This document shows, one piece after another, positions 41,391 to 63,990 of a DNA stretch of 64,000 nt (its first letter is position 1; each line of letters opens with the position of its first letter). Below the pieces are notes generated by a model, which saw only the letters and a list, made by a program, of their open reading frames with translations, ran no database searches and was not told the origin of the DNA. The position numbers were made by a program, and so were the translations under genes. The stretch is from Amoebophrya sp. A120. Its lineage: Eukaryota; Protista; Dinoflagellata. Location: NCBI GenBank assembly GCA_905178155.1, contig CAJINV010000005.1, positions 104,254-168,253 of the forward strand, written 5' to 3'.

Positions 41391-44300
41391 CTATTTCTCC
41401 TCCCCTTGCAGACCTTGCAATTTTTTGTTCATCATATGCCTGGAGGCCCTTGCGAGAAGTTTCGAGGGTCCGGGCAGGCTGTTAAACGTGCCCGATATCC
41501 CCTTCACGCCCCCCGCCTCTCGCAGCTCTTGTAGCGAATGCGAATTCTCTGAATTCACAGCCGGGGAGTCCAGGACGTCCAGCGCGGGCGCCGACGGGGC
41601 AGTTGCTCTCTCCGGTTCCACCGCCGACTGGTTCTTCTTGCGTTTTTGCAACTCCGCCTTTTCCCGCTGCTTCTTTGTCCGCATCAAAAGGGAGGATTTT
41701 TCCTCGTAAAACAGCATGGTCTGCTGTTGCTGTTGCTCCGCCTCCGCGTTACTCCGCATGTCTGCGGTGGATCCCGGGGGACCGGGTGCTGCTCCCTGCT
41801 GTGCTTCGTTGCTCTGATCCTTTTGTAATTCCACCGGTTGTTCGGATTGCTCCGCCGGAGCGGCTCCACCTCCCGATGAACTACCTCCAGCTGGTGGTTC
41901 CTGCTCGGGACCCGATCTCCAATCCTCCGTAGCATTCGACTGGGTCGTCGGATCCCCGCCGATCCCGCTTGGCGGCGGCGGCCGGCGCGCCAGGTAGCGC
42001 GCTTCCGCCTGCTTGCCCTTGATGGCTTGAATCCTGCGGTAGTTCCCTTCGGGAGACAGCGGTGAGTACATGTGCCCGTGGAGCCCGGCCTGCGGTCGTG
42101 CGCGGGTGCCCAGCTGCCGGTGCGGCTGCAGGGTTTCAAACAGCCCCACGGGGTTGACCTGGTTCTGCGTCACCGTCGGACTTTGGTAATTGGTCCCTTG
42201 CAGCACCGCTTGTGCCACGGGGCTCTTGACCGCCGCCCCGATGGAGTCGCTGAGGCCACTGACGAGGTTCCCAAACTGGTCCGTGTCGCGTGGGGGATCG
42301 AGCTGACTGATTACCTTGTTTTCGTACTGGTGGGTGTCGCGTGGACTGTTGGCCCGGTTTCTTGCGGCGTTCGCGCGGTCCAATAGCTTTCCGACATGGT
42401 GTGCACCCAAGCCGCCGGGACCGCCAGCCAGGCGCTGGCGCACGTAAAACTCTTCTTCTGTGTCGCGCGGGGGATCGACTTGGCTCAGCACTTTGTCGTA
42501 CTGGTGGGTGTCTCGCGGGCTGTTAGCTCGGTGTCTCGCGGCGTCTGCGCGGTCCAACAAGTTTCCCACGTGATGCGCGTGCAAACCACCGGGACCGCCC
42601 GCCAGGCGTTGGCGCTCAGCATAAAGCTCTTCTGCTTCTCTCTCCGCCTGCAAGGTATCCCGTGGACTGTTAGCTCGGTGTCTTGCGGCGTCTGCGCGGT
42701 CCAACAGATTTCCGACGTGGTGCGCGTGCAAACCACCAGGACCGTGGCCCATGCGCTGCGCAACTACCTCGCTGCTCAGGCGACCACCGCTATGTCGTAT
42801 CAGTCCGGACCCCACTCCCCGGTCCACCATATTCTCGCCCATGCCGGAAGCCCCGACTGCGCGGTCGATGATGTTGTCAAAGGCTAGCCCAGAACCCACA
42901 CCGCGATCTTCTGTTAATGCCGCCCGATTCGCCATCTGACTGCGCGGATCTGAAAATGTCGTTCCCCTCGCCAGTTGTGCTGCGTCAGCTTCACTCCCCT
43001 CCTGCAGGTGCGGGTCCACTGCGGGAACACCACCACCACCGGAGGACGAGTCATTCTTGTTGTGCACCATGTCGTCCACGTTCTGTGAGTGCAACAAGTA
43101 TTCCTGGTCGCCGTGCTTTCCGATAAGAACGCCCTGCGCGACGTCCACGATGTTTTTGACCATCGCGTCCTCCTGCGCTGTCATGCTGGAGGAAGGAACA
43201 CTTGACCTTTTCACCAGCCGGTTACCGTCCGCATCGAATTCGGCGTTCATCGCCGCCGGATCCGCCTCGGTATCGGCGATTTTCATGTCCCCGGCGGTCG
43301 CGAGGTTCATGCGCACGTACCTTTCCGGGTCCGTGGGGGATTTCGCGTACCCCATCACCATTTTTTCCATTTCGTCCTCCAGGTTTTTGTGCATCTGCGC
43401 CAACTGCTCGGAAAACGGCGGCGAGGGTTTGGGGGAAACAGAGTGTTCCATATCCGGGATGATGATCTGGCCCCGCATGATCCGAGAATCCACGATTTTT
43501 TTCACGCCGAACGGGGATTCGCCCCTTCGCGGGGAGAGGACGAGCATGCGGTCTTTAAAGTCTCTGCGCTCCACGCCGTGCCTCCGCAGGGACGCAACCA
43601 TCTCGGGCGACAGCCGTCGGGGGGAAAGATCGCCGCTGCCGTCGTAATCGGCGACCAAACCTTTCTTCCGCAGGTACTCATCAATCTCCTCCCCGGATTG
43701 CACTTTGCTGTACCGCTCGGTCCCGGTATCGTTCGGCCCGGTGCCGACGGGCGACACGATCTTGTCCCGAGCTTTCGACATGGCTTGTCCGGCTTTCCAG
43801 TGCAGGTCACGGGCGTTGGACACCTCCTTCAGCTTTATTCGTGGCAGTGCGTGAGGCCAGACCGTCATCGGGTCGCGCTGCGGCGAGCCCGGTGGGCTTT
43901 TCAGGATCCGATCGATCTCCATTTCTGCTTCTGCGAGGGACGGTGACGTCTGCAGCATCAAGTTCGTGGGTGCAGAAATGCCCTGCGGAAACCCGGCGTC
44001 CCGCACCGGCCCCTTGGGTCGCGGCCGGTCGCCGCCGGAATCCTGCAACAAAGCCTCGGCCCCGAGGAGGCCGCCACTAACCTGGTTGGCCCGCGCCCAC
44101 ATGTCGGCGTCCATGTTTTCCGGAATCAAGTGCGGACGCGGGCGGAAAGCGCCCGTACCCGCAAGCCGCCCAGCTTCGTCGGGTCCCTGGCCCGCGCGGT
44201 CTTTCCGCACCCTCGGTGGCGGCGGCGCCGACACGTACTGTTGCTTGCGCAGCTGGTTTCGCAAGGCCGCTAAGTAGCCCGGGTGCGAACCCTTGTGCAC

Positions 44301-47300
44301 GGCGTCCGCATCTAACGTTCTAGCGTACCGCTCCAACTCGAACAACGCATCGGCGGGGACCAGCGGCGTTCCCTTTTCCGGCGGCGCAAACAGCCGCTGC
44401 GCGTCGGCGTACGCCCGCAGCGTATCCAAGTACGCGTCGGCATAAGGATCCAAGCTGTCAAAGAGCAAGTACTGCAGTGGCGGAAGCGGCAAGCCCTCGT
44501 CGCGTTCCACGATACCGACGACCTGCTCGATGGTCGTCAGCAAGTCGTCTCGCACGTTGGGATTGTGTGCGGCGGTGCTGCGGCGCGGCGGGATGTCATC
44601 TTGACTTGCTGGTTGGCCCGCGACCGAGCCGGGAAGGTGGTCCAGGGCCTCGTGCTCGCTCCCGGGTACTGCACCAGACCCGCGCTGGCTGCCCGAGCGA
44701 GCCGAATCCCGCTGACTACCGAGCGCAGAGCCGCGGCTTGGAATAGCTCGACGGGAACTATCTCGGGCAAAGTCGGCATCATCGGCAAGGCCGCTGGGAT
44801 CTCTCCTGCTCGACTGCCGCAAGCTCTCCTGCCTCCCACTGTCGCCCCGGTTGAGACCATCTTGCAGTTGGCTTTGCGGTCGCTCACTATCCCGGACACT
44901 AGGTTCTCTCGCAGTGCTCCCAAACTGGTTCAACCCCGCGTCGAGTTGGCTCCCAGCCGCGTTGCTTGGCTCCCGGCCGCTCGGGTCTCGCGCGGTGCTC
45001 CCGAATTCGTTGAAACCGTCGCCGAGCTGGCTCCCGGCAGCATTGCTTGGCTGCCGGCCACTAGGGTCTCTAGCTGTACTTCCGAACTGGTTGAAGCCCT
45101 CGAGTTGGCTGCCGAACGCGTTACTTGGCTCCCGGCCGCTGGGCGTCCGCGCGCTGGGGTCCCGAGAAACGTCATCAAGGCCCCCTTGCCCACTCGGATC
45201 TCTTCTACTCGAACCGCGCACACTGGCTTCTCGATTGCTCGGGCCGAGCCCACCTTCGTCTTCGAGAAGGTCGCCGCCACTCATCGCACGTCCGCTGGGC
45301 TCTCGGCCACTAGGATCGCGGTTGCTAGGCTCTCGTCCACTAGGGTCGCGGTTACTGGGCTCTCTGCCGCTCGGGTCGCGGTTGCTGGGCTCTCTGCCAC
45401 TAGGGTCGCGATTGCTGGGCTCTCTGCCACTAGGGTCGCGATTGCTGGGCTCTCTGCCACTAGGGTCGCGATTGCTGGGCTCTCTGCCACTAGGGTCTCG
45501 GTTGCTGGGCTCTCTGCCGCTCGGAGCACGTTCGAAACCAGAGTTGAAGGGATCGCTTTCGGGGTCACCGCCGCTCATCCCGCGTCCGCTGGGCTCACGG
45601 CCACTCGGGTCGCGGTTACTAGGCTCTCGGTTGCTTGGATCGCGAATTTCGCCTCCATCGCTTGGCTCGCGCGCGCTTCCGAACCCTCCCTGTCCACTAC
45701 TTGGATCTCTAGTACCGCTTGGATCACGACCGCTCGGTTCCCGGTTGCTCGGATCCCGCGAAGCTTCCTCGCCGTTTCCAAAATCGTCGTCGCCAAATCC
45801 GCCTTCTTGGCCACTCGGATCTCGGCCGCTGGGATCGCGCCCGCTTGGTTCCCGGTTGCTAGGATCCCGTTCCATCTCCCCACCATCGTCGTCTGCAAAG
45901 CCCTGTCCACTTGGGTCGCGACCGCTCGGCTCCCGGTTGCTTGGATCTCGTGGCATTTCCCCGTCGTCTTCCTCCGCAAAGCCCTGTCCTCCGCTGGGCT
46001 CCCGGTTACTCGGTTCCCGGTTACTCGGCTCCCGGTTGCTCGGCTCCCGGTTGCTCGGATCCCGGTTGCTCGGCTCCCGGTTGCTCGGATCCCGGTTGCT
46101 CGGCTCCCGGTTGCTCGGCTCTCGTTCGTCGGGGTCCACCCTGCTGGGGCTGCGGTTGCTCGGTTCTCTCTCGCTCGGGTCCCTCGCCAGCGCCTCGTCG
46201 TGTTGACCACTTGGATCTCGTTCTACTGCGGCCGCCACTGCACCACCAGCACCCGCTCCTCCTTTGCCCATCCCTTTTCCTTTTCCAAAACCGGTCGCTG
46301 CGCCCGGTTGCGGTGCGATGTATTTCGTTGTGATGAACGACCCCTCCCGCGGCACCATCATTTGCAACCCGCCCATTTTGTTCATCGCCCCAACCTTGTT
46401 CAAAGCCGCAGCCACGTCCTCTTCAAATGGCTGATTTATGGGTGAAGGTCCGCGTCGCTTCCCGAAGGAATCTTTGTACCCCAGGTAGTACTCGGACAGG
46501 TCCCGCAAAACGTCGTTGCGGTACGCGAGCAAGTCCCGATCGGCGTTGCTGAAGTAGTTCGGCCCCGGACTTCTGTCGGAGGACCGCAAGAATGATCCGG
46601 TCTCGCCGCCATCGTCGTCCTCGTTGCTCTCCGGGTAGAACATGAAATTTCGCTGGGTAGTTTCACGCTGCTTCTCCAGCACCAACCGGTCCTTCAGATA
46701 CTCCGCGCTTGCTGTCTCCGGCGAGTGGCCATAGGTCCGGTTCAGGCGGTGGTTCTCGATGATCTCCTTGTACTCTGCCGCGTCCACCACGTTGTCATAA
46801 CCCCCGCTGCCCAAGTACCCCTCCCGCGCGAGCTGGTACCGTTCGCGCGCCAGAACGTCCTCAAAGTAGTCCTCCGGCAGGCCGCCCCCCGCGGCGTTGC
46901 GCACCCGCGGCGGCAGGCCGGATCGGATCGCGCGCGGCTTCGTCATCATCTGCCGCATCGCGCGCGGAGACATGGACCGCTTGAACCGCCCTTGGTGAGC
47001 GGACTGCTGTCCTCGCCGGCTACCGGAGCGAGGCCCGGCGTCCGCGATGCGATCGTACGTGGTCCCCACCTGCTGTGCGAGTTTGTCTGACGCGCGCGGC
47101 GTGACGGGTCTTCCCATCCGGTAAATTTCGTCCTGCATGTCCTGGCTGCGCAACGCTTTGACCATGCCTTTGCTCCCCGTCGCCATCTGGCGTTCCTCCG
47201 CGAAACTTGTGATGGAGGACAACAAGACGTCGCCCGTCGTGTTGGGCATACTCTCCATGATGCGGTACGCCATGCCCTTTACCTCCATTTCCGCCCGCTC

Positions 47301-50300
47301 GGCGCCGAGGTCCCGCGCCATGTTGGCCACAACGGTCGTTCCTGACGGTGCGCCCATGGCTCGCAGCTCGACCGCGTGTTTCTCCGCGACGCGCACGTGC
47401 GCGTCGCCGCCGCCGGCGTTCCGGTCCAGCTCCTTGGCGTACTCGATAAACGCCTTGTACAGCGCTTGTCCGTCCACGTCGGGGCGCTGCGCGGCGAGCC
47501 GCGCGGCGAGAACCTTCAACCGCTGCCAAACCGCACCCTCGTCCGGGCCGCCACGGTCTGGAACGGGGGGTGGAATCTCCGGTGAGGTCGCCCGCGCCGC
47601 CGACTGCGTGGTCGCGCGATGATCCACGCCTTGTTGCGCAGTCGATCGCTCCTGTCCTGGTTGAGCGGTCGCCCGCGCCATCGTCGATCGCGGAGGAGAT
47701 GGTGTGGGCTGCCGCGGCTCCATGGGTGTGTTTGCCTGCAGGGCCTGAATGGAGGGGATTACACTGGCGGCCATCGCGACAATCTCGCCCTGGTGATCTT
47801 CCACCGCCGTTGGATACGGTTCGCCCATTTGCCCCGCGTACTCGCGCAAGGCCTGCGTCAGCTGCGTGCCAGTCAGGTTCGGGTGCGCCTCGAGGATTTT
47901 CGGGACGACGCGCGTCTTCATCTCGTTCCAGCCTTCCGTGGGGGTTGCCTTCGTCTCCAGCTGCGACAACCGCTGCGTCACCTGCTCGCGCAACGAGTCC
48001 CGCCCTTTCTCCGCCATCGCCCGCAACTCGTGCACGTGCTGCTGCACTGCGGTGGCGAACCCGAGCCCGCCAGGCTGCTCGGCGTCGAGCTGCGCAGCGT
48101 ACTTTGCCATAGTTTGCAGTAGCAATTCGGGTCCGATGTCCGGGTGGTCCTGCACCAGCCGGGCGGACATGTCGCGCAGCCGCGCCCACTGGTAGCCCGG
48201 GAGCTTCGTTGGCCCGTGAATCGCGAGCGCATTCGCAAAGCCCGGGTCCACGTCGGGAGTGCGTGCTTTCATGCGGTGCTCCAGGTCAGCGACGTATTCC
48301 AGGACCGAAGCCGCGACTCGGAAGTCCTCTAGGTCGGTCTCCTTCAGCTTACGCGCAACCTCGTTGAGGTGGTCCCACTGGGCGGTGTATGAAAATCAAA
48401 AACTTTCTTGTCAGTGGAACGATACTAGGTATCTACGTACCATACTTCTAAATTTTCCAGATGCCATTTAGTCCTAAACTTCGAGTTTCAATTTGATCCA
48501 TCATCTACATGGTTGGCTTCTAGTTCCAGCTATCATCTGTTCTGCCTCACAAAAACCTTTTATTGCGCGAAACAAAGGCAATCAACTGTGGCGCATTAGG
48601 AAATCGTCCGTCTAAATCGCATCCCGATGTCAAACTTCTTTTGATGCAGCAGATACTAAGCCCTAGTGCCACTGAAAAGAAGTTTTCACCTCGATAAGGT
48701 GAACGTTGGGTCCTCACCCTCCGCGTCGTACTCTCCTGTAGCTCCATCTGCCGAGGGAGCCGGAATCGGAGCGTCTGGATTCCACCATCGCCCATTGATA
48801 AACTGCCACTGCCCGCCCTGTTTATCCTCGATCACATCACCCTCTTCCGGGTGCAACAAGTTCCGGTCTCGCAGTTCCAGCACTGCCTGGCTCGGATTTC
48901 CGCGTGGGTGCATCGTCGACCCGCCCTTCGGGGTGATGTTGAATGTCGCGTCCGTCTTTCCGTCCCGCAGTTCTAGGACCGCCTGCCCCGGATTCCCACG
49001 CGGGTGCACCAGTGACCCTCCCTTCGGGGTCATATCAAATGTCGCGTCCGTCTTTCCGTCGCGCAGCGCTTGCACCGACGCATTCGGTCTGGCAGTAGCC
49101 CTTTCGACAGTGTCGCGCCTCTTATTGATCCAGCTCGGTAGCGTCACTGCGCCCGGGTCACGCCCGCTGTTCGGAGAACCTCCGCGCTGTCCAACTTTCT
49201 GCTCCATCAACGCCATGTAATCCTCGATACCGCCTCCGACCTGCCCGTCCAAGTCCACGCTCAGGGGCGGAAGGAAGTCCCCGCTTTGCGAGGACATCTC
49301 GGCCGACGCAAACGGGTTCGCCCCACGGTCGTTGAGCCCGATGCTCGCGGGCCGCGCGGGGGGGTGCGCCTGCCCCGCGTCGTCCAGCGCGGCCTGGTAG
49401 CTGGCGCCAATCGGACCGCCAGCCTGCATCGCATTTCGCGGTGAGGCTTCCGGCCGCGCAGCATCCCGCGCTTCCTGCAAATACCGATTCATCATATCAT
49501 GATGCTTGACCGCGGCATTTCCAACTGCCATGATGTCGGCTTGATTTTGAAGATTCTGCTCTCCGCCCAAATCGGTCCGAAACATCGGCGTTGGAGCCAG
49601 ACCCTGTGGCGCGTAGTTGCGCAGACCCGGTCGATCCGGGACGCTTAGCTGCCCCGAGGGACTAGTGCCTGGGACTAAACTGGTCGTTCCGCCGACGGCG
49701 TTTGGGTCTGCTTCCAGCATTTCGGCCTTTTCGCGCTGCTGCTTGACAATCTGGCGGTCCAAATCCATGACCAGTTTTTCCAGCTCCAAGCCCCGTTCCG
49801 CCAACAGGCTCACGTACCCGGCGTACCGGCCGGTCCGCTTCGCCCGTCCGTCCATCTGCTCGGCCGCGTCTTTCGTATCGGACAAGGCCTGCCGACCACC
49901 CACGCCAGACCGCAGTCGGTCGAACGCGAAGTTCCGCAACGTGTCCCACACCTTCCCGGGCTCGCCGTGCAACAACTCGCCCGAGTACCGGTTGGCCGCG
50001 AACTGGTGCAGGTCGCCGCTGTTCTGCCGCCGGTCGAGCTCCTTGGCGTAGTCCGCCAGCTGGTCGACTGTCACTTGCAGCTTCGTCCGGTCGCCGCCGA
50101 TGAGACCCTTCTTCACCAGGTCCTGCAGGAAGTTCTGCAGGCCCTTGAAGCCGCCGTTCAACTGCGCATTGTTCGCGTACAGGGCCATCAGTTCCGCCAA
50201 CCGCGCCTTCACCACCGCCTCGTACCCCATCGGCGCCTTCACGCGCTGCGCCTCCTGGTCCAGCTCGTTGGCGTACTGCACGATGGCCGGCGCCAGGTCG

Positions 50301-53300
50301 TTGGGCGACACATCGGGGTGCTGCGTGAGCAGGGAGGTCACCAGCCGCATCATGTGCTGCCAGAACGGCTTGGACTGCGGGTGGTGGATTTCCGCGCCGC
50401 TGCGCAGGTTCTTGTAGGCCTCATCGAACCCGTCGCGGATGTCCAAGTCGAACGCGAGTTGCGACCACCTCCGCTGCTTCACGGGGCGTCCGCCCTCCCG
50501 GTAGTCGTTGATCGGCCGGTACATCTGTGGTGGCGGCGCCGGGTCCATGTAGTTTGCGCGGGTGTTCGTCGGGTACACCGGCGTTTTGTTCTTGTCAAAC
50601 TGGTCCTTCAAACCGCGCACGCGGAAGACGCCGTCGTCGCCGGCCGCCGCGCCCGCTGCATCCGCCTCTCCTGCGGCAACATCAAGAGCACCATCTTCAG
50701 TTCCAGCGGCCGCACCCGCTGCGCCAGGCAGTTGTTGTGCCCCGGGAGCACCCGCAGCGGCTGCGCCTACTATGGTGCCATCCGGGTTTCGAATGATACC
50801 ATCGGGCCCTATTGCCGGGCCGGTTTGCTGTTTTGCCTCCTCTTCTTGCTTCAACCTCAGCAACTCCTCCTCCTGTCTGCGCAGTTCCTCCTCCTTTCGC
50901 TGCATTGCAAGTTGGATTTCGTAGTTCGGCTTTTTGAACTTCGGGTAAAGACTGCTTGGCCCACCCATAAAGGCCCGCCCCGCGGCCGGACCAACCGCGC
51001 CTTTCGCGAGTCCGGTGCCAGGCTTCGTAATTCCGGCCGCAACGCGCGCGGAGACGCTTTGCGCCTTACCGGGGGTGGCGACGCCGACTTCGGGGGGGAT
51101 AATCTCCTTGCTAAAGGTGTCGACATGCGTGTTCACGTGCACATCCTGCAAGTCACTGCCTGGCGCGAAGGTGACACTCTTTTGCCCGGGGTGCTGGTAA
51201 AACTCGTGCGAGCCTGGTGCGTCCGCCTGCGGCAGCGTCTCGCCCGCGGCGCCCCGGGGCGTGATGTCTTTGCCCGCGAATACCGGCTGCACGTCCGTCA
51301 ATTCGTCAAGCGGAATTCCGGGCTTCGGCGCGTACAAGTACTCCATACCAGGCACTTCTGCTCGCATGCCCACCACGTAGTCCAACCCGCGCAAAATGTC
51401 GGGCCCCTCTACGGGAATGCCCCGAAGCGCACCTGCTTCGTCCTCGCCGGCAGCGATGTACCCAACTCCGGACCCTTCGCCAATTGGCTCTCGTAGTGGC
51501 AGTACATGCTGCGCTTGCTGCTCCGAATACCGAAGCGCGTCATCCTCGTCTTCGCCCTCCGCGATGCTTCCGATGCCCCCGAAGCCGGATCCCTCGCCCG
51601 CTGGACCGGCTCTTCCAGGACTACGTGGTTGCAGCTGCGCACCTGCAGCCGCCTGTTCCTTTGCCGCGGCGGCCTTCGCGAAGCGGGCCCGCGAGGCGCT
51701 CGGATAAACCGGCGCCGCCCCCGCTTTGCTGTACGCAGGGATCCTTTGCGAAGGTATTCCCCCGTCATTTGGTTTTCGGGGGATTGGCAACAGCGGTCCC
51801 CGCCCGGCAGCAACTGCGCGGTCGCCCACGTGCATCGGCGGCCCCGTCTTTTGGATCATGTTCCCAGCACCCGTGAAGGGGCTACGTGCCGTTGTTCCTG
51901 CGCGGTCGCCCGGCACCTGCGGTTCGCTTCCGAACAACGCACCCACATCTCCGCTCCGCACTGCCGGGTTGGCGGGACTGGCGATAATCTGTCCGCCCGG
52001 TCCGACCAGGGCACCCGAAGACCGGGCGATGCGCGCCAAGTGCGCACGCGCTTCTGCGCTGCCCGCGTCGAGTGGGACACCGCCGCTGTGCTCCAGGTAT
52101 CCTGCCGGGTACGACTTTTGCAGCAACGAATTCCCGTCTTGCTGCAGATCCATCATCGCCTGCTGCGAAAGTTGCGGTGAACCGACCCGCAGCACCTGTG
52201 CCGCATGGTCGGCTGCGGCTGGCGACAACGGCGCATCACCAGAGCGGATCATTCTGCCACCCGCCCCGAGCGGCGATCGCGGTCCCGTACCGGTATGCGG
52301 AGCTAGTCCCGTTTGCAGCTGCTGCTGAAGCTGCATTTGCTCTCGCTGCTGGTGTTGCAGCTGCTCTTGCTGCATCTGTGCCATTTGCTGTTGGTACTGC
52401 GCCTCCTGCTCTTGCAGCTGCATTTCCTGTCGGTACTGAGCATCCTGCTGCTGTTGCAGCTGCATTTGATTCTCCTGCATTTGCTGCAGCTGCTGCTGCA
52501 TTTCCTGCTGCGGTATTTGCTGCTGTTGCATGTGCGACTGCTGCATTTGCTGCTGATACTGGCGCTGCTGCTGCATTTGTTGTTGCAATTGCAGCTGCAA
52601 CCTCTGCTCTTCCGACATGGCCCGCTGCATTTGCGCAACGCGTCGCTGCTCGATCTCCCTTTGCCGTTGCGCAGCAGCTGCCCGTCTTTCCAGTTCGCGG
52701 TTTTCCTCGGAAGTCCGTACCAGCGGCTCGACGATCTCGTCGACTGCTTTTTGCCGCGCGGCGGGATCCATTGATCTCGTTCTCATCAGCGCGGCGATCA
52801 GCGCCTCGATCTGGCTGTGATAGCCGCGTGCAAGGTCCGCCAGCCCCGGTCGCCCCGTCTCCTGCTCGAGCTCGAGAGCGTACTGCACCACGGCACCGAA
52901 AAGTTTCTTCGGAGTCGTGTCCACATTGGCGTCTACCACCTTCGCGTCCACCAGCGCCATACACACACGCTCAATGTGCGCCCAGAAAACAGGCTCGTGC
53001 TCGGTCCAAAACGATTTCGCCTGGTTTTACAAGTGAGCTTGGTTTAGTTCTATCTCTACTTGTTTTTTACTGTTTCTAGTACGTGTCAACATGCGGTCCG
53101 ACGTCCAAGAAACTTTCAGCTACTGAAAGAGAACATATTCATCCTGTCAAGCTCACGATCTTGCTGTCGCAAACGAAATTATACTTAAGTACTTCACTTC
53201 AACATCGAAAAATAAGTACCACGTGCAAGCCGGATCCGACCCTACTCGTGCGTTTTTCTGGCAGGTAAACTGAATCTGTGCCGGATTCTATCGCGCCCAT

Positions 53301-56300
53301 GGCGGAGCCCTCGCCGTCGCGGCTGCCGGCGAAGGCCCCACTGCCCGGGTCCCCGCTCCCCCTGCCTTCGCTGCTCCCGAATCCTCCGCCACTTTGCGCT
53401 TCTTCGCCAAAGCCACCGCCACTTCCGGATTCGCCGAAGCCTGCGGGCTGGCCGTCGTCCTCGGCTTCTCCATCCTGGAAGCCCTCCCCGCTTTCTCCCG
53501 GCTCACCACTCTCGCCACCAAAGCCGCCTGATCCGGTTTGAGGTTGTCCGAAGCCCCCGCCGCTTCCCATGCTTCCCGGCGCATCTTCTAATTGTTCACC
53601 GCTTCCGGTCATGCTGCCCTGTGCGGCTTCTGCCATGCTTCCACGCGCCTCTCCTCCTGTATCATCGTCCTCGAAACTACCGCCTTGCGTGCTCATCGGC
53701 GCTCCGCTCATAGCTGCAGTTCCGCTCATCGGAGCTCCGCTCATACTGGTTGGCGCTCCGCCTCCGCTTACCTGGCCTCCGGATCCACTTCTTGGGCCTC
53801 CGGATCCGCTCCTCGGGCCTCCAGATCCACTTATAGCGGCACCGCCACCGCTGCCGGGGCCACCGGATCCGCTCATTGGGCCTCCAGAGCCACTCATAGC
53901 GGCACCGCCTCCGCTTGTGGGACCCCCGGATCCGCTCATCGGACCTCCAGACCCACTCATAGCGGCACCGCCTCCGCTGCCGGGGCCTCCGGATCCGCTC
54001 ATGACAGCGCCACTTCCGCCTCCCGAACCTGGAGCGCCGCTCATCGGAGCTCCACCTCCACTCCTCATCGAACCTGGACCAGCGCCGCTCATCGGAGCTC
54101 CGCTGCCGCTCCTCGGGGCTCCGCTTCCGCTCATCGGAGCTCCGCTTCCGCTCCTCGGAGCTCCGCTTCCGCTCATCGATCCAGGAGCGCCGCTTGCCGG
54201 ACCTCCACCTCCACTTCTCATCGAACCTGGACGAGCGCCGCTCATCGGACCTCCGCCTCCACTTCTCATTGAGCCGGGCGATCCGCTCATCGGAGCTCCA
54301 CTACCGCTCATAGGCGCTCCGCTACCGCTCATCGACCCTGGAGCGCCGCTCATCGGACCTGCGGCCACGCCGCCTTGCCCGGGCCTTTGCTGCCCTTCTT
54401 GAAACATCCAGTGCGCGTCTGCATCTCCGCCTCCGCTTCCCGGATCTCCTGCCCCACTCCCGGGAGCGTCCATCATAGCAGCACTTCCCCTGGCACCGCC
54501 GCCACTTCCGGGTTGACCCCCGGATCCCGGAGGGGGTGAGCCTGCACGCGATCCCGCACGAGAACCTGCTCCTCTAGATCCTGGAAGACCCGCAGATCCC
54601 GGACCGCCAGACCCCGGAGGCATACTTCCAGGCATCGCACCGGAGCCGGGAACACCACCAGATGCGGGGAAACCGCCGGAGCCGCTACCACCCGACCCCG
54701 GGGGGAGACTTCCGGGGATCGGGCCGATTCCAACCGACGCTAGCGCCTCGGCGTCCGCGGCTTGCTGCATGGGGTCTTCGCGACGGCTGCTGAGCCGCCG
54801 ACTACTCAATCGTTCTGATCCACCGCCCGGGCCTCCGGGATGCGATGGTGCTCCATCGGTAGTCATTCGTCCCGACATAAGCTGTCCCGATTCCAGTCCG
54901 GCACGGGACTCGAGTCCAGCCATCTCATTCAGTGCTGGCTCCTGGATAGCTCCGGTGAACATACCGCCGGGCACTTGTAGGTGCGCTGGAAGCTCGTTGT
55001 ATCCTTCGAGGGCCATGATATCGATGGGTTCCGGGGGCGGTTGCATCGGTTGCTTCGCCGAACGCGCGCCTGGCACTTGACTGTCCCGCATCTCGCTCCC
55101 GTCCTCACCTCCGAGTCCACCTTCTGCTCCGTCAGCTCCCTCTGCTGCAGAAGATATCCCGTGCGAAAGTATCGTACTTGTACGTAGTAATTGCAGTTCT
55201 ACTGCATCTTACCTGAGTGAGCATCTTTCCCGATGATGTAAAAATGCAACTACTAGTAGGTACGATGCTTTTGCACTGGATAGAAGAGCGTCGCCCACCA
55301 CTCCCAGCACTTTTCAATCCCTCTGCGGCAAGGATATCGATCGGGTCCGGCCGCTCCTCCTTCGTCTCCTCGATCAGATTGATTCGTGCACCGCCCATTG
55401 CGCGCCACGGCGTGATCAGATACCCCTGCGGCGGAGCGCGGCCTTCGAGTAAGTGCAGCACCTCTTCCTGGTGCATGCGCAGCGCCTCCAGATACCCGAT
55501 GGCCCAGCCACGAAACTTTTGCACCGAGTCCAGCTGTGCGGCGCAGTGCGCCATGTCCTCGAGCAGATCCGGTCCGAGCAGCCCGGTGCGACCCCGGAGC
55601 CGCCCGTACTCGCGCATTGCGTCCCAGAAGTGGCCGTACCTGGGACCCAGAATGATCTCGCCGCAAAACCGGTCCGCCGCCAGTTCATGCAGCGCTTCGC
55701 TGTCCCGGCCCACTGCGCGCAGCTCCGCGTCCATCACACGAGCGCGTTCCTGAGAAGAGATAGAGAAAGCGCTCAGCATAAATCATCATGATGAGAATTA
55801 TGGTCGACTGTCTTTTTAGCTCCGATGAGAGCGCGGCTTTATTAAGCGCTTGCTCATAACAAAGGGAAGTTTTTGTGACATACAACTGCCTTGCGCTGGC
55901 TTATCATGTGAAAAGAACCTCAAAAAAATGTCCTCCTGCTATACCCTCATCATCATCTCCCCGCCGTCCGGCAACGTGTTGAGCTCGCGGCGCTGCAACC
56001 GCTGCTTCACTACCCAGTTGCGCAAGGTGTCCTTCTGCCTCTGCATCCGGTCCTGCGAGATCGGCGCGCCCGCCGCCAGGATGATGTCGACCCGGCTCTC
56101 CACCATCGGCACCAAATTGGGCTGCGGGTGGTAAAACTCTCGCGTGCCGCACACTTCGTCGATCCGCTTCGCGAACATCCGGACGCCGGCGAGCAGCGTC
56201 TCGCCGTCCAGGTGCAGCACCGCCTGAAACTGCAAAATCGCCCGCGATAGGTTCATCCACGGGTCACGCAGAATGCGCGGCCCCAGCTCCTTGGCGTGTT

Positions 56301-59300
56301 TCTCCGGCGGGTTGCTGGGGTCGTACCGGACGAACTCATTGTTCCGCGCGGTCAGGTCCAAGTGCGCCAGCCCCAAAGCGAGCGCCCGGGCCTGGTTCAG
56401 CGGCGACATGCGCCCGAAGTCCCACGGGGTCGTGCGCGGGTCGAAAGCCTTTTGCATGCGGATGAACTGGTCCCCCATTCCGAGCCCCGCCGGCGCGGGC
56501 AGCTCCAGGTCGCGGTTGCTCACCGGTAGATCGCCGGCCCCGACCGTGGTCGCCTTGATGCTATACTGGTCGAACTCAGTCATGTATGCAAAGGAAAAAG
56601 TGCTGCAGCTATACACATTGTATTGCAGGTCAAGCAAGAAAGAGCAGCTCTGTCATGCCAGCTATGCTCAGAAACCTCGTTTGGTGCGTGTTTTCCCATC
56701 CGTCCCCTCATCATGATCTCTGCACTGCAAGTTTTCTCTGTCATGCAGAAAAAATTTGTGTCGCTGAATCTGAAGTTACAACGAATGTGTATATCTGTAC
56801 CATTTTTAGTACGATATCATGGGCGGCTTGGCGCGGCCCTCGGTTTCCGCGAGCCGCGCGTACTCCCGCTGGTAGGCTTCGAACACGTCCGGGTCCAGTA
56901 TAACCTGCTCATGTGTTGCCATGATCTCAACTGTCTTTCCGACAGAGTCTGGACTTTATCTTGTTGCATGGACAGAATGAGTAACATACAGGGCCGTGCG
57001 CTTTTCGCAATACAAATTTCGCCAGATTCTAGTGCGGTTTGGGGCTCCTGCAGAACCAACTCTAAAAATTCTTCCAAAAGTATGTCAGACTCAGATCTCG
57101 CACGTTTTGCATCACAAGTCTGCTCCGTTTCTAAATTAATCGTAATCATTTGAGACTGCAAGTGCAACACGTGAGCGGGCCATATCCAGTGGCCGGCCGG
57201 TGACCTGCTCGAACTGCTCGGGCGTGTACGGGTGCGCAGTGCGCCAGTCGAAGTCCTTCAGCACCTTCACCTTGGGCACCACCACCTTCGGGAGCGGCGC
57301 CGGGGCCTTCGCGCCCTTGTGCTCTGGCCGGTCGAAAACGTTTCCCTTCTCGTCCGTGTCGTAGACCGACGACCGGGTCAGCAGCCGCTGCTCGTCCTCG
57401 AACTTTTCTCGCCAGGTCAACTCCCTCCCACGGTAGCTGGTGTCGCTCTTCAGCTGCGCCGCCTGCGCTTCCCGCATACCCTTGTGGTCGGGGTCCCGGA
57501 ACTTCCGCGGGTCAATCGGCTTCCCGGGCTGCGGCACGTTCATGGCCGTGGCCGCGTAGCCCTTGTGGTCCTTGCGGCTGTACTATCCAAGAAAAAAACG
57601 CTGCTAGTGTAAATTTCTGATGCGCAACATGCAAGATGATTGCGTCTGTCATGCTTGGCATGCATCGTAGGGTCTATTAAAGGGCGTTTTCACGTGCTAT
57701 CTGCGCATGACAGGTTTTTGCTGTCATGCCCTCGCAAATTTGTAATGCTGTTCCTCCAAAAAAGTTACACCTACAATGTTTTTTTCTTGGATATGTACCC
57801 CTTCACCCCGTACGCGTACCCCTCTCTGCCGGCAAACACCGACCCAACCTCCTTGTCCAAGATACTCTCGCGCTTTACCCGGTCGCGCCAGCTCTTCTGC
57901 GGATCCATCTTTCCCGTCTCGGCGAACCGCTGCATTTTCGTGCGGATGTCCATCTTGCTCTCCTTCATCTCGTCGGGGCTGGCGCCGAACCCCCCGACGT
58001 TCTCCATCGTGAGCGATTGCTATCAGAGTGCATAACTCGTCCCTCGCATTTTTATTTGTCATACTTACAAAAGCGACCCTTTGCAGGTTGTCTGTGTTGC
58101 TAGACATTGTGCACGACGAGGGGAAGTTGTGCACTCTCATAACTGCCGCCTCTCCTCCATCGTCTTCGCGGCGCTGTCCCGCGGCCGACCGGGGCTGGTG
58201 GGCGAGACCTCGGGCGTCGGATCCGCCTCCTCCTCGTACTCCTCAAAAATCTCAAACGTCCCTCTTTCCGCGATCTATCCCATGTAAAAATGTCCCCATG
58301 ACCGCAGCCTTGGCATGCAGCTCTGCATCTACAAAGACACTTGTAATGCACATCCCCATGAGATGGATTTGTCGTCGTGTCTTGCCATTTGTGATTCTGT
58401 GAAACCTAACCAGGAGAAGCAGGCGTCTTTGTGATGCGAATATTCTTCTTAACCTGCACTGCACTACAGAGATAAAGTTGTCATGCATGACTCCAAATAA
58501 GTAAAACAACTTCTGGACTTGTACTGCAAGAGTTCGCAGCTTGACTCTGGACTTTGGGCCCGATTTTTACACAGGATACGATCAGTTCTTGTGTGATTTC
58601 CTCCATCGGCACGAGAATCAGCTCCCCGTGGTCGTCGGGAAACGCGGCGTAAAGCTTCCTCGTGGATTTTGGAGGCTTTTTCTCCCCCACATTCACCAGC
58701 GTCTCCGTGTGTTCGTCCCATCGCCGCTGAGACGCGCCGTCCCGAACCAGAATTTGGTTGTTCCCCAGGTCGAGTAAGTCGTCCTTGTGGTACACTGTAC
58801 CGACTTCAGTGTCGATCTGGTGGTGAAAAGGGTTATTTAGGAAAAATGCAGCAAATTGTTTTTTTTTTTTTCCATCATGATGTAACCCGATTATATCACC
58901 GCAAAACTCAAGCTCAACACAAGAATGTCGCGATGAACTCTGGCTGTCTACTAAAAGTAAAAGTCAAAGTATCGCAAGAAAAAAGTGTTACAGTTACACA
59001 TTTGTTGGAGTTTCTGCATCACAAATTTTCTCTGTCTGGCAGAGAAAACTCGTAATGCGAAGAAGATCATAAGGGAAAATATGTAGGAAACGAGGCTCGC
59101 AAGCATTTCCTGCATGACAAAGGTTGTCTGTATTGCGGCTTCTGCAACACAAAAAATCATACCGTCCCCGCCTTCAATCCCATGGCCTGGATGCAGCGCT
59201 CGTCGATGTCTTTCCCCTTCCGCTGCACGACCTGCTTCACGTTTTTCAGAGCGTCGGAAATCACCCCTTTGGTACTTAACAATTAGCTATGCGATGCAAA

Positions 59301-61370
59301 TTTGTCTGGGCCTGGAGAGATGTGACACGGATTCTGGAACTACGGCACACGCACGGGCAAAGTTTTGCATTGCATGGTTCGCAAAAGCTGCGCGCTTTTG
59401 TCTCCGAAACAGAGTACTTCTCATGCAGACAATGCATGGAAAAGCCTCCGCTTAATTTACCATGCTACGTATTTTTTTCCAGACACAAAAACTGCATGCA
59501 AAATGTCTCCTTTCATCTTCCAGACCTAGACATCATATTTACAGTGCGTATTCGTCTAACGCCTTCTGCCCCTCGTCGTAGATCTGCTGGAGAATTTCCT
59601 CCCTTGTCTTCCGCATTTTCACCTGGTTCAGGTAATCCAAGGCCTGCGCCTGCTCCATCTGCCGCTGCTGAAACTGGTGCTTCTTCTCCATCAGGTCCTT
59701 CTTGAAAGACTCGAGCTCGCCCTCCTGCAGGCGAAAAAACTCGAACCGCACCTGATTTTGCTTTTCGTGTTCCCTATCAAGTGCAAAAATGTCTGGGTCT
59801 GGAAGAGTGCCAGACTTGCCATGCAGGTTTTCCATGACTTATGAGGTCTGGCATGTAGGACATAGCATGACAGATTCTGTGAGAGTTCTATCATGCCTAT
59901 CCTGCATTAGAAACTGCCTCTCGATTAGGTCAAAAGTGGACAGCTTTTGGCAATCATGCAGCGCAGATCTTTACATGATTCACATTTAGCATGACAAGCT
60001 GCTTTGTTCCACACCCAGACATTTTTGCATTTGATATTCTCGCTCGAGCTGCAACTTGTTCGCCTTCATCAACGTGCCAAAAATCTGGTTCCACTGGTTC
60101 GCGTACAGGTCTTATCAAACGCAAAAGTGTCTGCGTCTGGAAGGTTGGAACTTGTAATGCTGTCTTTGGATTCTGAAAAAATCTGCATTGCATGACCAGC
60201 AGCAGGACTCCAGTTTGTGTTACGCGGAGAGGGCATTTCTCATGCGAAATAGGCATTAGGAAGCCCTCTAAAAATCTAATCTGTGTTGCTAGATCATGCA
60301 TTACAGGCATCAGGCGTCATGCAAAAAATGCATGACAAACCTGGCACTCTTCCAGGCCCAGACATATTTGCATTTGATAGGTCTTCGAGGTACATGGACT
60401 GCTCTTTCAGCAAGGCCTCTTCTCGCTGGTCCGACACGACATTCTCCACATTGACCGTCACCCGCGGCGTAACCACCACCTCCCCGTTCTCCATCCCCAC
60501 CTCGTTTTTCACATTCACGGACACGTTTGGGTTGACTTGAACCGGTGTCGCACTGCTCGTTTTCCCTGCCGCGCTACCCGGCGGACCGGCGCGACCCCTG
60601 ACGAGAGATGGATTTTTCAGCTATGAATTAGTGTCTGACGTTTAGTGTTCAACATCGTTTGCAAATTTTTCGTCTTTATCCTCAAGTAAAATTAAAAAAA
60701 GGCCGCTCTACATGAAATGAAACTACAGCATTGTACATGATAATCGTGTCCGTTTCCTTTTTTTTGTCACTCAACTTGATCTTGATCTTCTTTCCCTCCG
60801 GTGCCTTCTGGTAGTCCAACAGGAGGTGATCCACTTCGCGGGCCGCGTTCGCCCCGCCCAGGTTGGAACTGAGCTCCGAGCGGCTTTCCGCCTGGCTGGT
60901 GTTCAAGCTGGACACGTCGTCCTCCGTCTTGTAGATTTTGTCCCTCAGCCGGCTGATCAGCTGCAGCTGCGTACTGGTTCGCCCGGCGGTCCCATCCTTC
61001 TTCAGGTTCAAGTAGCTCAGATTTTCCAACACCTGCATAGAGTTGTCCACGGGGTCGTCCGAGACCCGGTTTCGCAGCATCACGTGTGCCTCCAACAACC
61101 GGGCCGACCGCAACGCGTCCGGTGAAAGACTCCCCTCGCGCACGTAGGACCCGCTCGGGTCCCTCTTGAACGAGGTCCCTCCTTCGTGCAGCGACATGCC
61201 GTGGGGACTGCGCTGGGAGCTGCGCGGGCTGCTGGTTCGCGAGCCTCGCGGGCTCATCCGACTGGACTTCCGCTTCGGGGCGCCTTCGCCCGGGGAGCTT
61301 TGCGGCGCGGAACCGCCGGGAACTGGAGTGTGTCGGTAGTTGTTGATGCAGATCTTTATTTTGGTCGTGC
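41391..61370 (-). CDS. Giant multi-exon low-complexity/repeat protein (about 5,500 aa in this span)
   Basis: The 2293-, 1426-, 630-, 215-, 232-, 135- and 191-aa ORFs and smaller exons join in frame across nine TIR introns and GT-AG introns 53021-53270, 55750-55944, 58817-59162, 59275-59542 and 60598-60775. The same helical module recurs in several exons. Confidence 0.8.
42330..42765 (-). repeat. Three copies of a ~36-aa His/Gly-containing coding repeat
   Basis: [35 protein letters not shown] three times with substitutions. Confidence 0.9.
44950..46225 (-). repeat. Coding 15-bp tandem repeat encoding R(D/E)PS(N/G) pentapeptides
   Basis: Dozens of [10 protein letters not shown] units; near-perfect 30-bp periodicity at ~45300-45520 and 15-bp periodicity at ~46000-46120. 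Confidence 0.95.
48388..48696. mobile_element. TIR (MITE-like) intron, 309 bp
   Basis: Left TATGAAAATCAAAAACTTTCTTGTCAGTGG vs reverse-complemented right TATCGAGGTGAAAACTTCTTTTCAGTGG. TSD CGGTG/AGGTG. Removal gives PTFT-AQWDHL in frame. Confidence 0.8.
48870..49070 (-). repeat. Two-copy 32-aa (96-bp) coding tandem duplication
   Basis: [10 protein letters not shown](D/N)(M/I)TPKGGS(L/T)(V/M)HPRGNP(G/S)QAVLE twice. Confidence 0.85.
52310..52620 (-). repeat. Coding poly-Gln-rich (CAG/CAA) tract
   Basis: [23 protein letters not shown]... in the 1426-aa ORF. Confidence 0.9.
53690..54400 (-). repeat. Coding Gly/Ser-rich repeat (PMSGSG[A/G] units)
   Basis: Repeated ccgctcatcggagc(t) on the plus strand; translation [15 protein letters not shown]... 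Confidence 0.9.
55155..55282. mobile_element. TIR intron, 128 bp
   Basis: TATCCCGTGCGAAAGTATCGTAC vs TATCCAGTGCAAAAGCATCGTAC. Perfect TSD GAAGA. Removal gives [11 protein letters not shown] in frame. Confidence 0.9.
56585..56816. mobile_element. TIR intron, 232 bp (degenerate TIR)
   Basis: TAT...ATA ends sharing the inverted core CAG(C/A)TATACACATT. Perfect TSD TCATG. Removal gives KPPM-TEFDQ. Confidence 0.82.
56899..57184. mobile_element. TIR intron, 286 bp
   Basis: TATAACCTGCTCATGTGTTGC vs TATGGCCCGCTCACGTGTTGC. Perfect TSD TCCAG. Removal gives GRPLD-PDVFE. Confidence 0.88.
57584..57793. mobile_element. TIR intron, 210 bp
   Basis: TATCCAAGAAAAAAACGCTGCTAGTGTAAATTT vs TATCCAAGAAAAAAACATTGTAGGTGTAACTTT (first 16 bp perfect). 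Perfect TSD TGTAC. Removal gives [11 protein letters not shown]. Confidence 0.92.
58021..58141. mobile_element. TIR intron, 121 bp
   Basis: TATCAGAGTGCATAACT vs TATGAGAGTGCACAACT. TSD ATTGC/ACTGC (the mismatch is synonymous, CAA/CAG). Removal gives ERRQ-SLTMEN. Confidence 0.87.
58276..58578. mobile_element. TIR intron, 303 bp
   Basis: TATCCCATGTAAAAAT vs TATCCTGTGTAAAAAT. Perfect TSD CGATC. Removal gives [11 protein letters not shown]. Confidence 0.88.
59288..59542. mobile_element. Degenerate relic of the 59775/60113 TIR family inside a probable GT-AG intron
   Basis: Left TATGCGATGCAAATTTGTCTGGGCCTGGAGAGA and reverse-complemented right ATGTCTAGGTCTGGAAGA resemble the family TIR. No intact TSD. 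Confidence 0.65.
59775..60036. mobile_element. TIR intron, 262 bp
   Basis: TATCAAGTGCAAAAATGTCTGGGTCTGGAA vs TATCAAATGCAAAAATGTCTGGGTGTGGAA (28/30). TSD TTCCC/TTCTC. Removal gives [13 protein letters not shown]. Confidence 0.93.
60113..60379. mobile_element. TIR intron, 267 bp; same family as 59775-60036, apparently in the opposite orientation
   Basis: TATCAAACGCAAAAGTGTCTGCGTCTGGAA vs TATCAAATGCAAATATGTCTGGGCCTGGAA. Perfect TSD GGTCT. Removal gives [13 protein letters not shown]. Confidence 0.93.
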
Positions 61371-61438: not shown

Positions 61439-63990
61439 GTCCGAAACAAAGAACGTACAGTGTGCTTTGAAAAAATCATTTGTACCAAAGATGTCGTTCA
61501 TGTCAATTCGACTCAAGTCGAACATGCCGTCCTTGCCCACCTGGTCGATCCAGACCCCGTCTAGCCCCTTGAGCCACCGTGCGTAATTCGGCATCCCGCT
61601 TTGCGGACAGATGATTGAATCAATCTCGACCAGCATTGCCTGCGCGATTTGTGGCTGGGACCCGCCCCGCACGAACGTGAAAACCAACGGTCGTCGTGCG
61701 TCAAACAAAAGCTTCAACTGGAACTCCAGCGGGAGCTCAGCGAAACGCCGCCCGATGTCTGTTTTATGGATAGGATGATACCACACTCAACTACCTTGTG
61801 CGAAAACACTTCATAATTCAAGCAGTACGAAGTAACTACTTTTGCACCCTTGTGGTGGAGGGTGGACGACAATATTATTATTAGCAAAACGAAGCCGCAT
61901 CATCAAAAATCAACTTGTTCTCAACAAAGAGAATATGATGACGATACGCCCGACGCCGTGCAGGCGATCGCCTCTTCGGATCCCCTTTGACTCCGCCCAG
62001 CCGTTCGGGTGCACGCTCTTCACTTTGCAAACGCACAAACCGGCCGCGGACCTCTGGATCTCGAGCATCATGCCTAATAGGCACGGGGATACGGAAGTGT
62101 CCGCTACGACGCTGATTTTCGTTTCGTGCACCGGGAGGTTGCCGTCCGAGAGACTCTCTGGCCCGTCCTCGTCCGCCCCCGCATCTATGCCGGGCGGTTT
62201 TTGCTGGGACGAAAACATGGCTCCCTCGCCCTCCCCGCGCCGCGCCTTGCGGTCGTGCTCCTTGTTATAGAACGAACCCTCATCGCGGTAGAAGCTTTCG
62301 CCCTCCCCGTCTCTCCTGGGCGGACTGCGATTCCCCTCTGCGCGGGAGCGTGGGAAGCCGGCTCCTGCCAACTTGTCGGCGAAGGACGCGTCCGCGTTGA
62401 GAACATCGGACTCGAGCACGCTACCTACCTGGTCCCCGCGCCGCTCGGGGTGCATCTGCAGGTCGAGCGCGCGTCGCTCCCTTTCGTTTCGCAGCCTGAA
62501 AAATTTTTCGTAGTGTGGTCGGGCCAAGGTGCTGTACAAACTGTGTGAAAACCGCAAGGAAAAAATTTCATATACATTCTGGGCGGATTTGTTGTACCTG
62601 GTTCGACCTGTACGAAGGACATTTAGTACTGTGACCGAGCGTGATAAAAAAAGCGCTGTATACTTTTTTCTCTGCAGCCGCGCTGATTGTTCTGTCAGGG
62701 GTAATTGGTGTCCTATCTTTGTCAACTCATCCTCCATCGCAGAAGTCATGCCGTCGTCGTCGTCCTCTATGCTTGCAAAATTGTGAGAAACAACGTCGAA
62801 TTTTTCGCGCCTCATCACGCTTCAATGAAAAAATGCATCTTCTTCATTTTTTGCTGTAGAAACAAGGTAGACACAGACTGCGCTGCACGACTACTTCCAA
62901 CATGTCGTCCGCTCTTCGAAAAGAAAAAAAAAGTATGGTCAACATGCAGAGTTCGTGTACTTAACTTGCTGGCTTCAACAAGAACGATAAATTTCGGACT
63001 TTGTTCTCACCCACCAGGAGTCCGCCTGGATATCCTCGAGGCTGCGCGGAAGCGCGCTGTCCGTGTCCCGGAGGAGCATGTAGTCCGGGTGCGTTTCTTC
63101 TGCCATGCGCTGTACCTGGCGAAACATCGTGTGCGACCCCTCGAAGAGAGCAGGTGAAGAGGTAACGGTTGCCGTCGCGTTCTCGTCTTGTGCGTTTTTC
63201 CCACCGTCGGGTGTTCTTTCCTGCTTCCGCGCTTCCATTTCCTCCTGCTCTGTGTCCGACATCGCCGAGGCTCTCTTCCGACTCTTTCGTTTTTTCTTCT
63301 CCTGCTTCATCTTTGTAGTTCTGCTGTCCGACACAGAGGAGCTGTCTTCTTCCCCATTTTCCCCTTCTTCAATGCAGGGGAGCCGCTCGCTAGTACTCAG
63401 GATGACGTGCGGCCTAGGGAGGTTGTCCTCGCGTGCTGAAGCGAAACTAACCACGTGTTGATCGCGGCTTACGGAAGTAGCAGAGAGCATGTCGACATCA
63501 TCTTCGTCAGGGACGTCATGTCCTTCCTCCACCTCGATATTACCGCCGCCGGCGTCAGGAGGATTCATCCTCTCGTGGTCGTCCACCTCGTGTTCAAAAC
63601 TGCTTGGAGTAGTAGTTGTTTCGTGACCAAATGTAGTTGTCCTCCCGTTTTCGACGCGCCCTGCCTGCATCCACTCCGTCTGCTGCTCCATTTCGGCCTC
63701 TTCGACCAGGGAAGCCAGCGAGGTATCTTCGGGGTCGTCGCGCCCTGCAACGACCATGGCTAGGTCGTCGTGAGACACCGGAAGAAGAAATTATGCAACG
63801 AGGGGACAATAGTGCGGATCTGTTATCTGCGGTTGTCAACTACAACCCGCCACAAAAATGAAGATCGCGGAGGCAAATAAGTAGTGTGGCAGCAATTTCT
63901 TCGCCATGTGGTCGTACCTATCGTCAATATTTTTGCGCAGATGATACGGACACGATGAGTTCGTTTTGCTGACCCCCACGTCCTCCGCGG
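61439..63990 (-). CDS. Further exons with a PDZ-like domain; probably the upstream part of the giant gene
   Basis: GLCVCKVKSVHPNGWAESKGIRRGDRLHGVG joins via GT-AG intron 61786-61947 to LWYHP...LLFDARRPLVFTFVR, a PDZ-like pattern. Junctions near 61.4, 62.8-63.0 and 63.8-63.95 kb are not resolved. Confidence 0.55.

Follow-up and report, generated by a model that had tools for sequence, protein, structure and literature searches.

In the accessible text of Farhat et al. (2021; PMC7789003), the introners of Amoebophrya sp. A120 carry an inverted repeat that starts with TAT, seven nucleotides and AAA, are flanked by direct repeats of 3-5 nt and number 29,850 copies. Their status as introns is supported by RNA-seq, U1 snRNA is missing and the borders are said to "remain unknown"; the same text argues against a general transposase-mediated mobilisation in A120. 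The PMC12130899 dataset classes most A120 families, in rows 1-40 of its 58, as TIR DNA elements with no superfamily assigned. One of its A120 families, family 38, is labelled "Ginger, 5-bp TSD, TA/TA termini", and the accessible part of the article describes it as "reminiscent of Ginger", without the expected Ginger termini. At stake is how introns that lack a splice signal can be removed in a eukaryote in which no U1 snRNA has been detected.

According to the accessible parts of PMC11282704, Fritillaria borealis and euglenids also have introns derived from MITEs, which bear terminal inverted repeats (TIRs) and duplications and are excised although they lack GT-AG ends. Those of Fritillaria prefer AG-AC or AG-AT ends and those of euglenids follow a pyrimidine/purine rule, whereas the target site of the elements studied here shows no preference. 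The introners of Micromonas and Aureococcus are likewise non-autonomous TIR DNA transposons turned introns, but there canonical splice sites are carried or co-opted, which is not the case here. In Amoebophrya A25 the published motifs are TT-NN (PMC7789003, Table S4, as accessible), which suggests that the 5' cut in A25 is fixed at or near the start of the TIR. One A120 family, fam26 (730 bp; accessible data of PMC12130899), has donors GT in 20 and AT in 10 of 32 cases, with all acceptors non-canonical; it departs from the others, and therefore the A120 introners do not all share one geometry.

The window analysed here, a stretch of 64,000 nucleotides of A120 contig CAJINV010000005.1, had been predicted from its letters to contain nine AT-richer TAT...ATA inserts of 121-309 bp within one coding sequence, six with perfect 5-bp duplications and three with a single mismatch. 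A scan for TAT...ATA segments flanked by a 5-bp repeat, with scoring of the TIRs, recovered all nine where they had been placed (Table 1), the mismatches being at 48388, 58021 and 59775; a tenth, degenerate copy had been overlooked. The GC content of the nine was 0.40-0.45, compared with about 0.6 for exons. TIRs had been claimed for every insert: seven scored at least 8, as against none in each of five shuffles, while those at 48388 (score 6) and 56585 (score 4) were weak. The predicted fold paired the ends of nine of the gene's ten elements, the exception being 56585. Five of the nine clustered with metagenome copies, and the other four were singletons in the set compared.

Table 1. Positions in the window of the host coding sequence, its elements and predicted introns, and an insert in the upstream gene
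Feature	Position	Strand	Remarks
Host coding sequence	41391..60611	-	5349-aa open frame with 13 inserts removed; 5' end past 60611 not fixed
TIR element 1	48388..48696	.	309 bp; one-mismatch duplication; weak TIR
GT-AG intron, ordinary, predicted	53021..53219	-	
TIR element 2	55155..55282	.	128 bp; perfect duplication; fold z -10
GT-AG intron, ordinary, predicted	55750..55944	-	
TIR element 3	56585..56816	.	232 bp; perfect duplication; weak TIR; family of element 5
TIR element 4	56899..57184	.	286 bp; perfect duplication
TIR element 5	57584..57793	.	210 bp; perfect duplication; 90% interior identity with one metagenome copy
TIR element 6	58021..58141	.	121 bp; one synonymous mismatch in duplication
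TIR element 7	58276..58578	.	303 bp; perfect duplication; GT-AG readable one base outside each end
GT-AG intron, predicted	58817..59162	-	element-related hairpin fragment inside
Tenth, degenerate element	59288..59550	.	263 bp; duplication 3/5; TAC start
TIR element 8	59775..60036	.	262 bp; one synonymous mismatch; in largest family; fold z -8.8
TIR element 9	60113..60379	.	267 bp; perfect duplication; family of element 8
TAT...ATA insert, upstream gene	62768..63032	.	perfect 5-bp duplication; only one TIR-like end

The 13 inserts removed to give the host frame were the ten TIR elements and the three predicted GT-AG introns; exons of 1446 and 2334 codons remained open. A candidate 5' intron near 60621-60770 was rejected, as it yielded no open frame. 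The closest protein was Amoebophrya A25 CAD7931149.1 (29% identity over 623 columns, E = 4e-45). When a single exon was used as the query, three proteins were returned among 1.84 billion representatives, with the A25 protein as the best match and the sole named relative. The A25 protein was collinear across the junctions at 56585, 56899 and 57584, and again across 48388. As judged by protein similarity, the host gene is the predicted orthologue of CAD7931149.1 and the host organism is Amoebophrya, a parasitic dinoflagellate. Protein searches found neither the annotated protein of the gene itself nor a near-identical relative, only relatives at 71% and 62%, and none of the four host exons scanned matched a Pfam family above the cut-off. 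Elsewhere in the window (1-48000), the long open reading frames were all on the minus strand and there was no clear TIR element; the frames include two photolyase-family genes and genes for an EF-hand ion channel, a RING protein, a La-domain DEAH helicase and a PH-domain protein.

No spliced junction of the host gene was observed, and removal at the RNA level rests on the accessible text of PMC7789003 together with frame logic. RNA runs X4-X6 gave zero depth on the host exons. Run X7 contained identical exon pieces at a depth of 3-5.5, with element-bridging in 0 of 24 pieces (the best 24 of 263) and at 0 of 4 joints. In run X6, 393 reads from both strands matched a 43-base stretch of element 5 (57686-57729) apart from three differences; they shared one constant pair of flanks, as expected for a single abundant transcript containing a related piece of element.

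A 23-base word from the TIR matched 129 metagenome loci (L001-L129), and the 80 listed all came from one assembly; a TIR search of viral contigs gave no matches. To measure duplication length, TIRs were paired without use of the flanking repeat, and some of the misses are mis-paired ends. Among 111 copies of one family, 93 had a perfect 5-bp duplication and 102 had one with at most one mismatch, while lengths of 1-4 and 6-10 were at background; in the main family, then, the duplication is constant in length at 5 bp, which narrows the question of how the introns are removed. A wider scan returned 331 elements, compared with three in one shuffle. Their logo was TAT-[CG]...AAAAA, with A at positions 11-15 at frequencies of 0.77-0.93; TAT was a criterion of the scan and the A-run was not, although many copies had been found via that TIR. 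The longest stop-free frame was below 100 codons in 322 of the 331. By this anatomy, with a duplication of fixed length and no transposase gene, the elements are probable short non-autonomous TIR DNA transposons (MITEs).

They are almost certainly introners of the A120 type, as originally predicted for a MITE-like Amoebophrya element and as borne out by the A25 orthologue, the A120 motif match and the high-copy, dispersed families. The logo of the 331 elements has TAT, seven nucleotides and at least three A, a direct repeat of 5 bp, within the published range of 3-5 nt, flanks all nine elements in the window, and the families are repeated. The likeness to the introners in the accessible text of PMC7789003 extends to a 5-bp repeat example, lengths of about 240 nt, many families and poorly annotated host genes. 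The class is thus already known, and its finding here is a rediscovery. A difference is that repeats and splice motifs are variable in that text, whereas here 93 of 111 copies in a single family have a 5-bp repeat, and sliding inside the duplication reproduced most of the variety of motifs. The A120 families in the accessible data of PMC12130899 share the TA termini, the 5-bp duplication and lengths of about 150, 210, 260, 305 and 320 bp, a likeness at the level of anatomy; they differ in that no integrase homology was found here among the element ORFs scanned.

Removal of each element with one copy of its duplication (element+5) had been predicted to restore the reading frame at all nine sites. 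Codon usage provided an independent call of the exon frames, which agreed with this in 9/9 cases (chance 3^-9), and retention of an insert would cause a stop or a frameshift in every case. In the larger set, 245 of the 331 elements had usable flanks and 149 of these passed a frame-confidence filter; the frame class was conserved at 141 of these 149 insertions. As had also been claimed, precise removal gave GT-AG ends for none of the nine at any of the six cut positions within the duplication, so that, if removal is precise, these are not canonical U2 introns. Neither was there any enrichment of splice dinucleotides at the duplication over 131 sites, after phase correction. The main family was found in both gene orientations (40:23), and only 6 of 92 neighbouring exons had a Pfam match at 1e-6.

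It is very improbable that the inserts are instead cut out at cryptic GT-AG pairs, or that the gene is dead and keeps them. Frame-compatible pairs did lie within 30 nt of six of the nine elements (3-18 pairs each), and at the tenth element there is a good pair in a shifted position; however, there were none within that distance of 48388, 58021 and 60113. The result for 141 of 149 insertions is, moreover, tied to the ends of the elements, and a dead gene is at odds with the long open exons and the existence of an A25 orthologue.

The frame test does not in itself prove precise removal, because excision of the element plus two bases (element+2) keeps the frame as well, at the cost of one extra codon. 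Since 5-2=3, it did so at all nine sites in the window, without a stop. In this rival model the spliceosome would place its cuts one base beyond the two ends, using N-TAT...ATA-N as a degenerate GT...AG, and each insertion would add a codon. The element at 58276 would then become a clean GT-AG intron (G/TAT...ATA/G), and eight of the top nine A120 motifs have the pattern NT-AN. Insertion phase was biased (76:46:34 in 156 oriented insertions, p = 1e-4); the target sequence gives no explanation and precise removal does not account for it, whereas its order is that favoured by element+2, with exact codon duplication. The three mismatches in the window also fall at synonymous or intronic positions, a weak point with a chance of about 0.2.

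We simulated both cuts on 131 perfect-repeat elements and compared the outcome with 13 published A120 motifs. Element+5 with sliding toward GT-AG, under a rule modelled on the presumed behaviour of BLAT, placed GT-AC and CT-AG at the top and also yielded GT-CG, GA-AG and GG-AG (Spearman 0.62); with element+2, the latter three were all absent (Spearman 0.44). Each cut recovered six of the published top nine motifs. The distance to 1994 annotated introns (seven families of at least 96 copies each) was 21-23 for element+5 versus 25-26 for element+2, and GC/GA donors, which make up 10% of these introns, were produced only by element+5. Its fit to the published motif counts is thus only modestly better than that of element+2. 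The A120 introns were placed with BLAT by their authors (accessible text of PMC7789003). Because the target sites carry no splice signal, much of the published diversity of splice motifs is likely to stem from aligners sliding inside the duplication.

Other observations also bear on the position of the cut. In an SNF2 gene (locus L006), element+5 aligned without gaps to all 19 homologues chosen from 120 listed, whereas element+2 added a residue within this indel-free segment. A conserved Phe at an older insertion of this gene speaks for an exonic upstream copy; element+5 was still one residue longer there than the closest homologues. For a second conserved junction, a PDB search was empty at E = 1e-25. 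Element+2 gave a stop at locus L062, and overall the one stop seen, against 1.6-2.0 expected, indicates no avoidance of stops. The positions of 28 mismatches in 23 duplications did not discriminate between the two cuts, and two mismatched duplications provided a hint that the upstream copy is mostly exonic. In the accessible text of PMC7789003, moreover, the TIR offsets vary (1-5 nt), which counts against a cut at one fixed base outside the ends. We consider precise removal, with five flanking bases, to be likely and removal with two bases to be quite unlikely. The two are separable by a single RNA alignment, and the mismatch in the duplication of about one in six elements would mark the cut in RNA reads. 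A literature search with few subscription journals, in which the motif was not queried by name, turned up no publication that deals with the cut register in A120, with the internal motif described below or with conversion to canonical introns.

If removal is precise, its chemistry is probably spliceosomal. At the RNA level, the symmetric ends would pair and so replace recognition of GT-AG, and a modified spliceosome would remove the element with the five flanking bases, cutting at a possibly fixed register inside the duplication. A hairpin-guided endonuclease and ligase, as proposed for the nonconventional introns of euglenids, would also give precise removal. It would fit the absence of GT/AG and target-site signals, the pairing of ends in the predicted folds, the rarity of branch-point-like words (CTAAT in 9 and CTAAC in 11 of 156 elements) and the lack of detectable U1 snRNA in the accessible text of PMC7789003. 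That route seems unlikely to us, however: the same text credits A120 with 83 of 89 spliceosomal proteins and with U2, U4, U5 and U6, GT-AG introns are present in the same gene, and the TIR introns of Fritillaria are said to be spliceosomal (PMC11282704, accessible parts). The explanation as a whole, in which A120-type introners spread as transposons and are spliced, each together with five flanking bases, from the pre-mRNA, which then encodes the original protein again, is one that we hold to be somewhat probable.

The original prediction had allowed structure-guided removal from either RNA or DNA. Excision from DNA before transcription, in the manner of IESs, is extremely improbable, although the anatomy of TIRs and duplication would suit a transposase. 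Transposase excision normally leaves footprints. Run X3 yielded 11,150 contigs on the region, with a summed depth of about 20,000 over elements 8 and 9 versus 0-8 on exons. Loose contig ends stacked at 59774-59775 and at 60379, and their flanks were unrelated. One contig (depth 13; 59769-60037) joined the end of element 8 to its start, and could represent a circle junction or equally a tandem copy elsewhere. Against excision, contigs read through the borders between exons and elements unexcised, and an empty site was found at none of the best 15 of 41 joints. Empty-site junctions were also seen in 0 of 327 cases at the metagenome loci, a weak test in which only 12 flanks were seen twice.

An internal motif, GCATGACAA, was common to the elements. 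GCATGA, or GCATGA(CAA) in its longer form, or the complement was present in 313 of 331 elements, a 30-fold excess over shuffles. It occurred in every one of six unrelated families, with no difference between the strands; in the window it was seen within 56585-60379, and three of the nine elements lacked it. Such strand symmetry would suit a DNA-binding site, and the motif is a candidate site for binding of a transposase. The elements would have spread by cut-and-paste as non-autonomous DNA transposons. From the TIRs, the fixed length of the 5-bp duplication and the strand symmetry of the internal motif, we infer that an integrase-like (Ginger-like) DDE transposase, acting in trans, would make the 5-bp staggered cut.

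Ginger elements end in TGT...ACA. The termini here are TAT...ATA, and thus differ from the Ginger pattern. None of 112 locus ORFs scanned, a subset of the 894 listed of at least 110 codons, gave an rve/DDE match, and this lack of a transposase among the ORFs scanned also counts against Ginger-like spread. A 2459-bp element (L041:476-2934), which has the TIRs of the family and a 5-bp duplication free of mismatches, interrupts a host frame and contains a 415-codon ORF; this was not called a transposase, having no Pfam, Atlas, viral or Foldseek match and a pLDDT of 43. The original prediction had treated the mobilising enzyme as unresolved, and the Ginger label of family 38 in the accessible PMC12130899 dataset makes that question less open.

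In the tenth element, a GT lies 8 nt inside the TIR and a CTAAT...AG just beyond the end. The GT-AG pair at 59275-59542, shifted by 8 nt, excises 268 nt, the same as precise removal of the element. The branch-point-like CTAAT arose within the old duplication, and the first eight bases differ from the opposite end by a Met-to-Leu change and two changes that are synonymous, which gives them the look of exonic sequence. From these features, we hypothesise on a single case that the tenth element may have been converted from an introner to a canonical GT-AG intron; if so, it would directly capture a transposon intron in the course of turning canonical. A broader idea, which we put forward tentatively and with more doubt than confidence, is that the ends of the TAT...ATA hairpin alone set one fixed register, with no splice dinucleotides. 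On this view the reported variety of motifs would be an artefact of aligning a constant 5-bp duplication, and ageing elements could be rescued by sliding to GT-AG, as at 59288-59550. If true, this would cover tens of thousands of transposon introns in Amoebophrya. The TAT...ATA insert in the upstream gene (Table 1), with one non-matching end and with GT donors nearby, is possibly another half-converted element.
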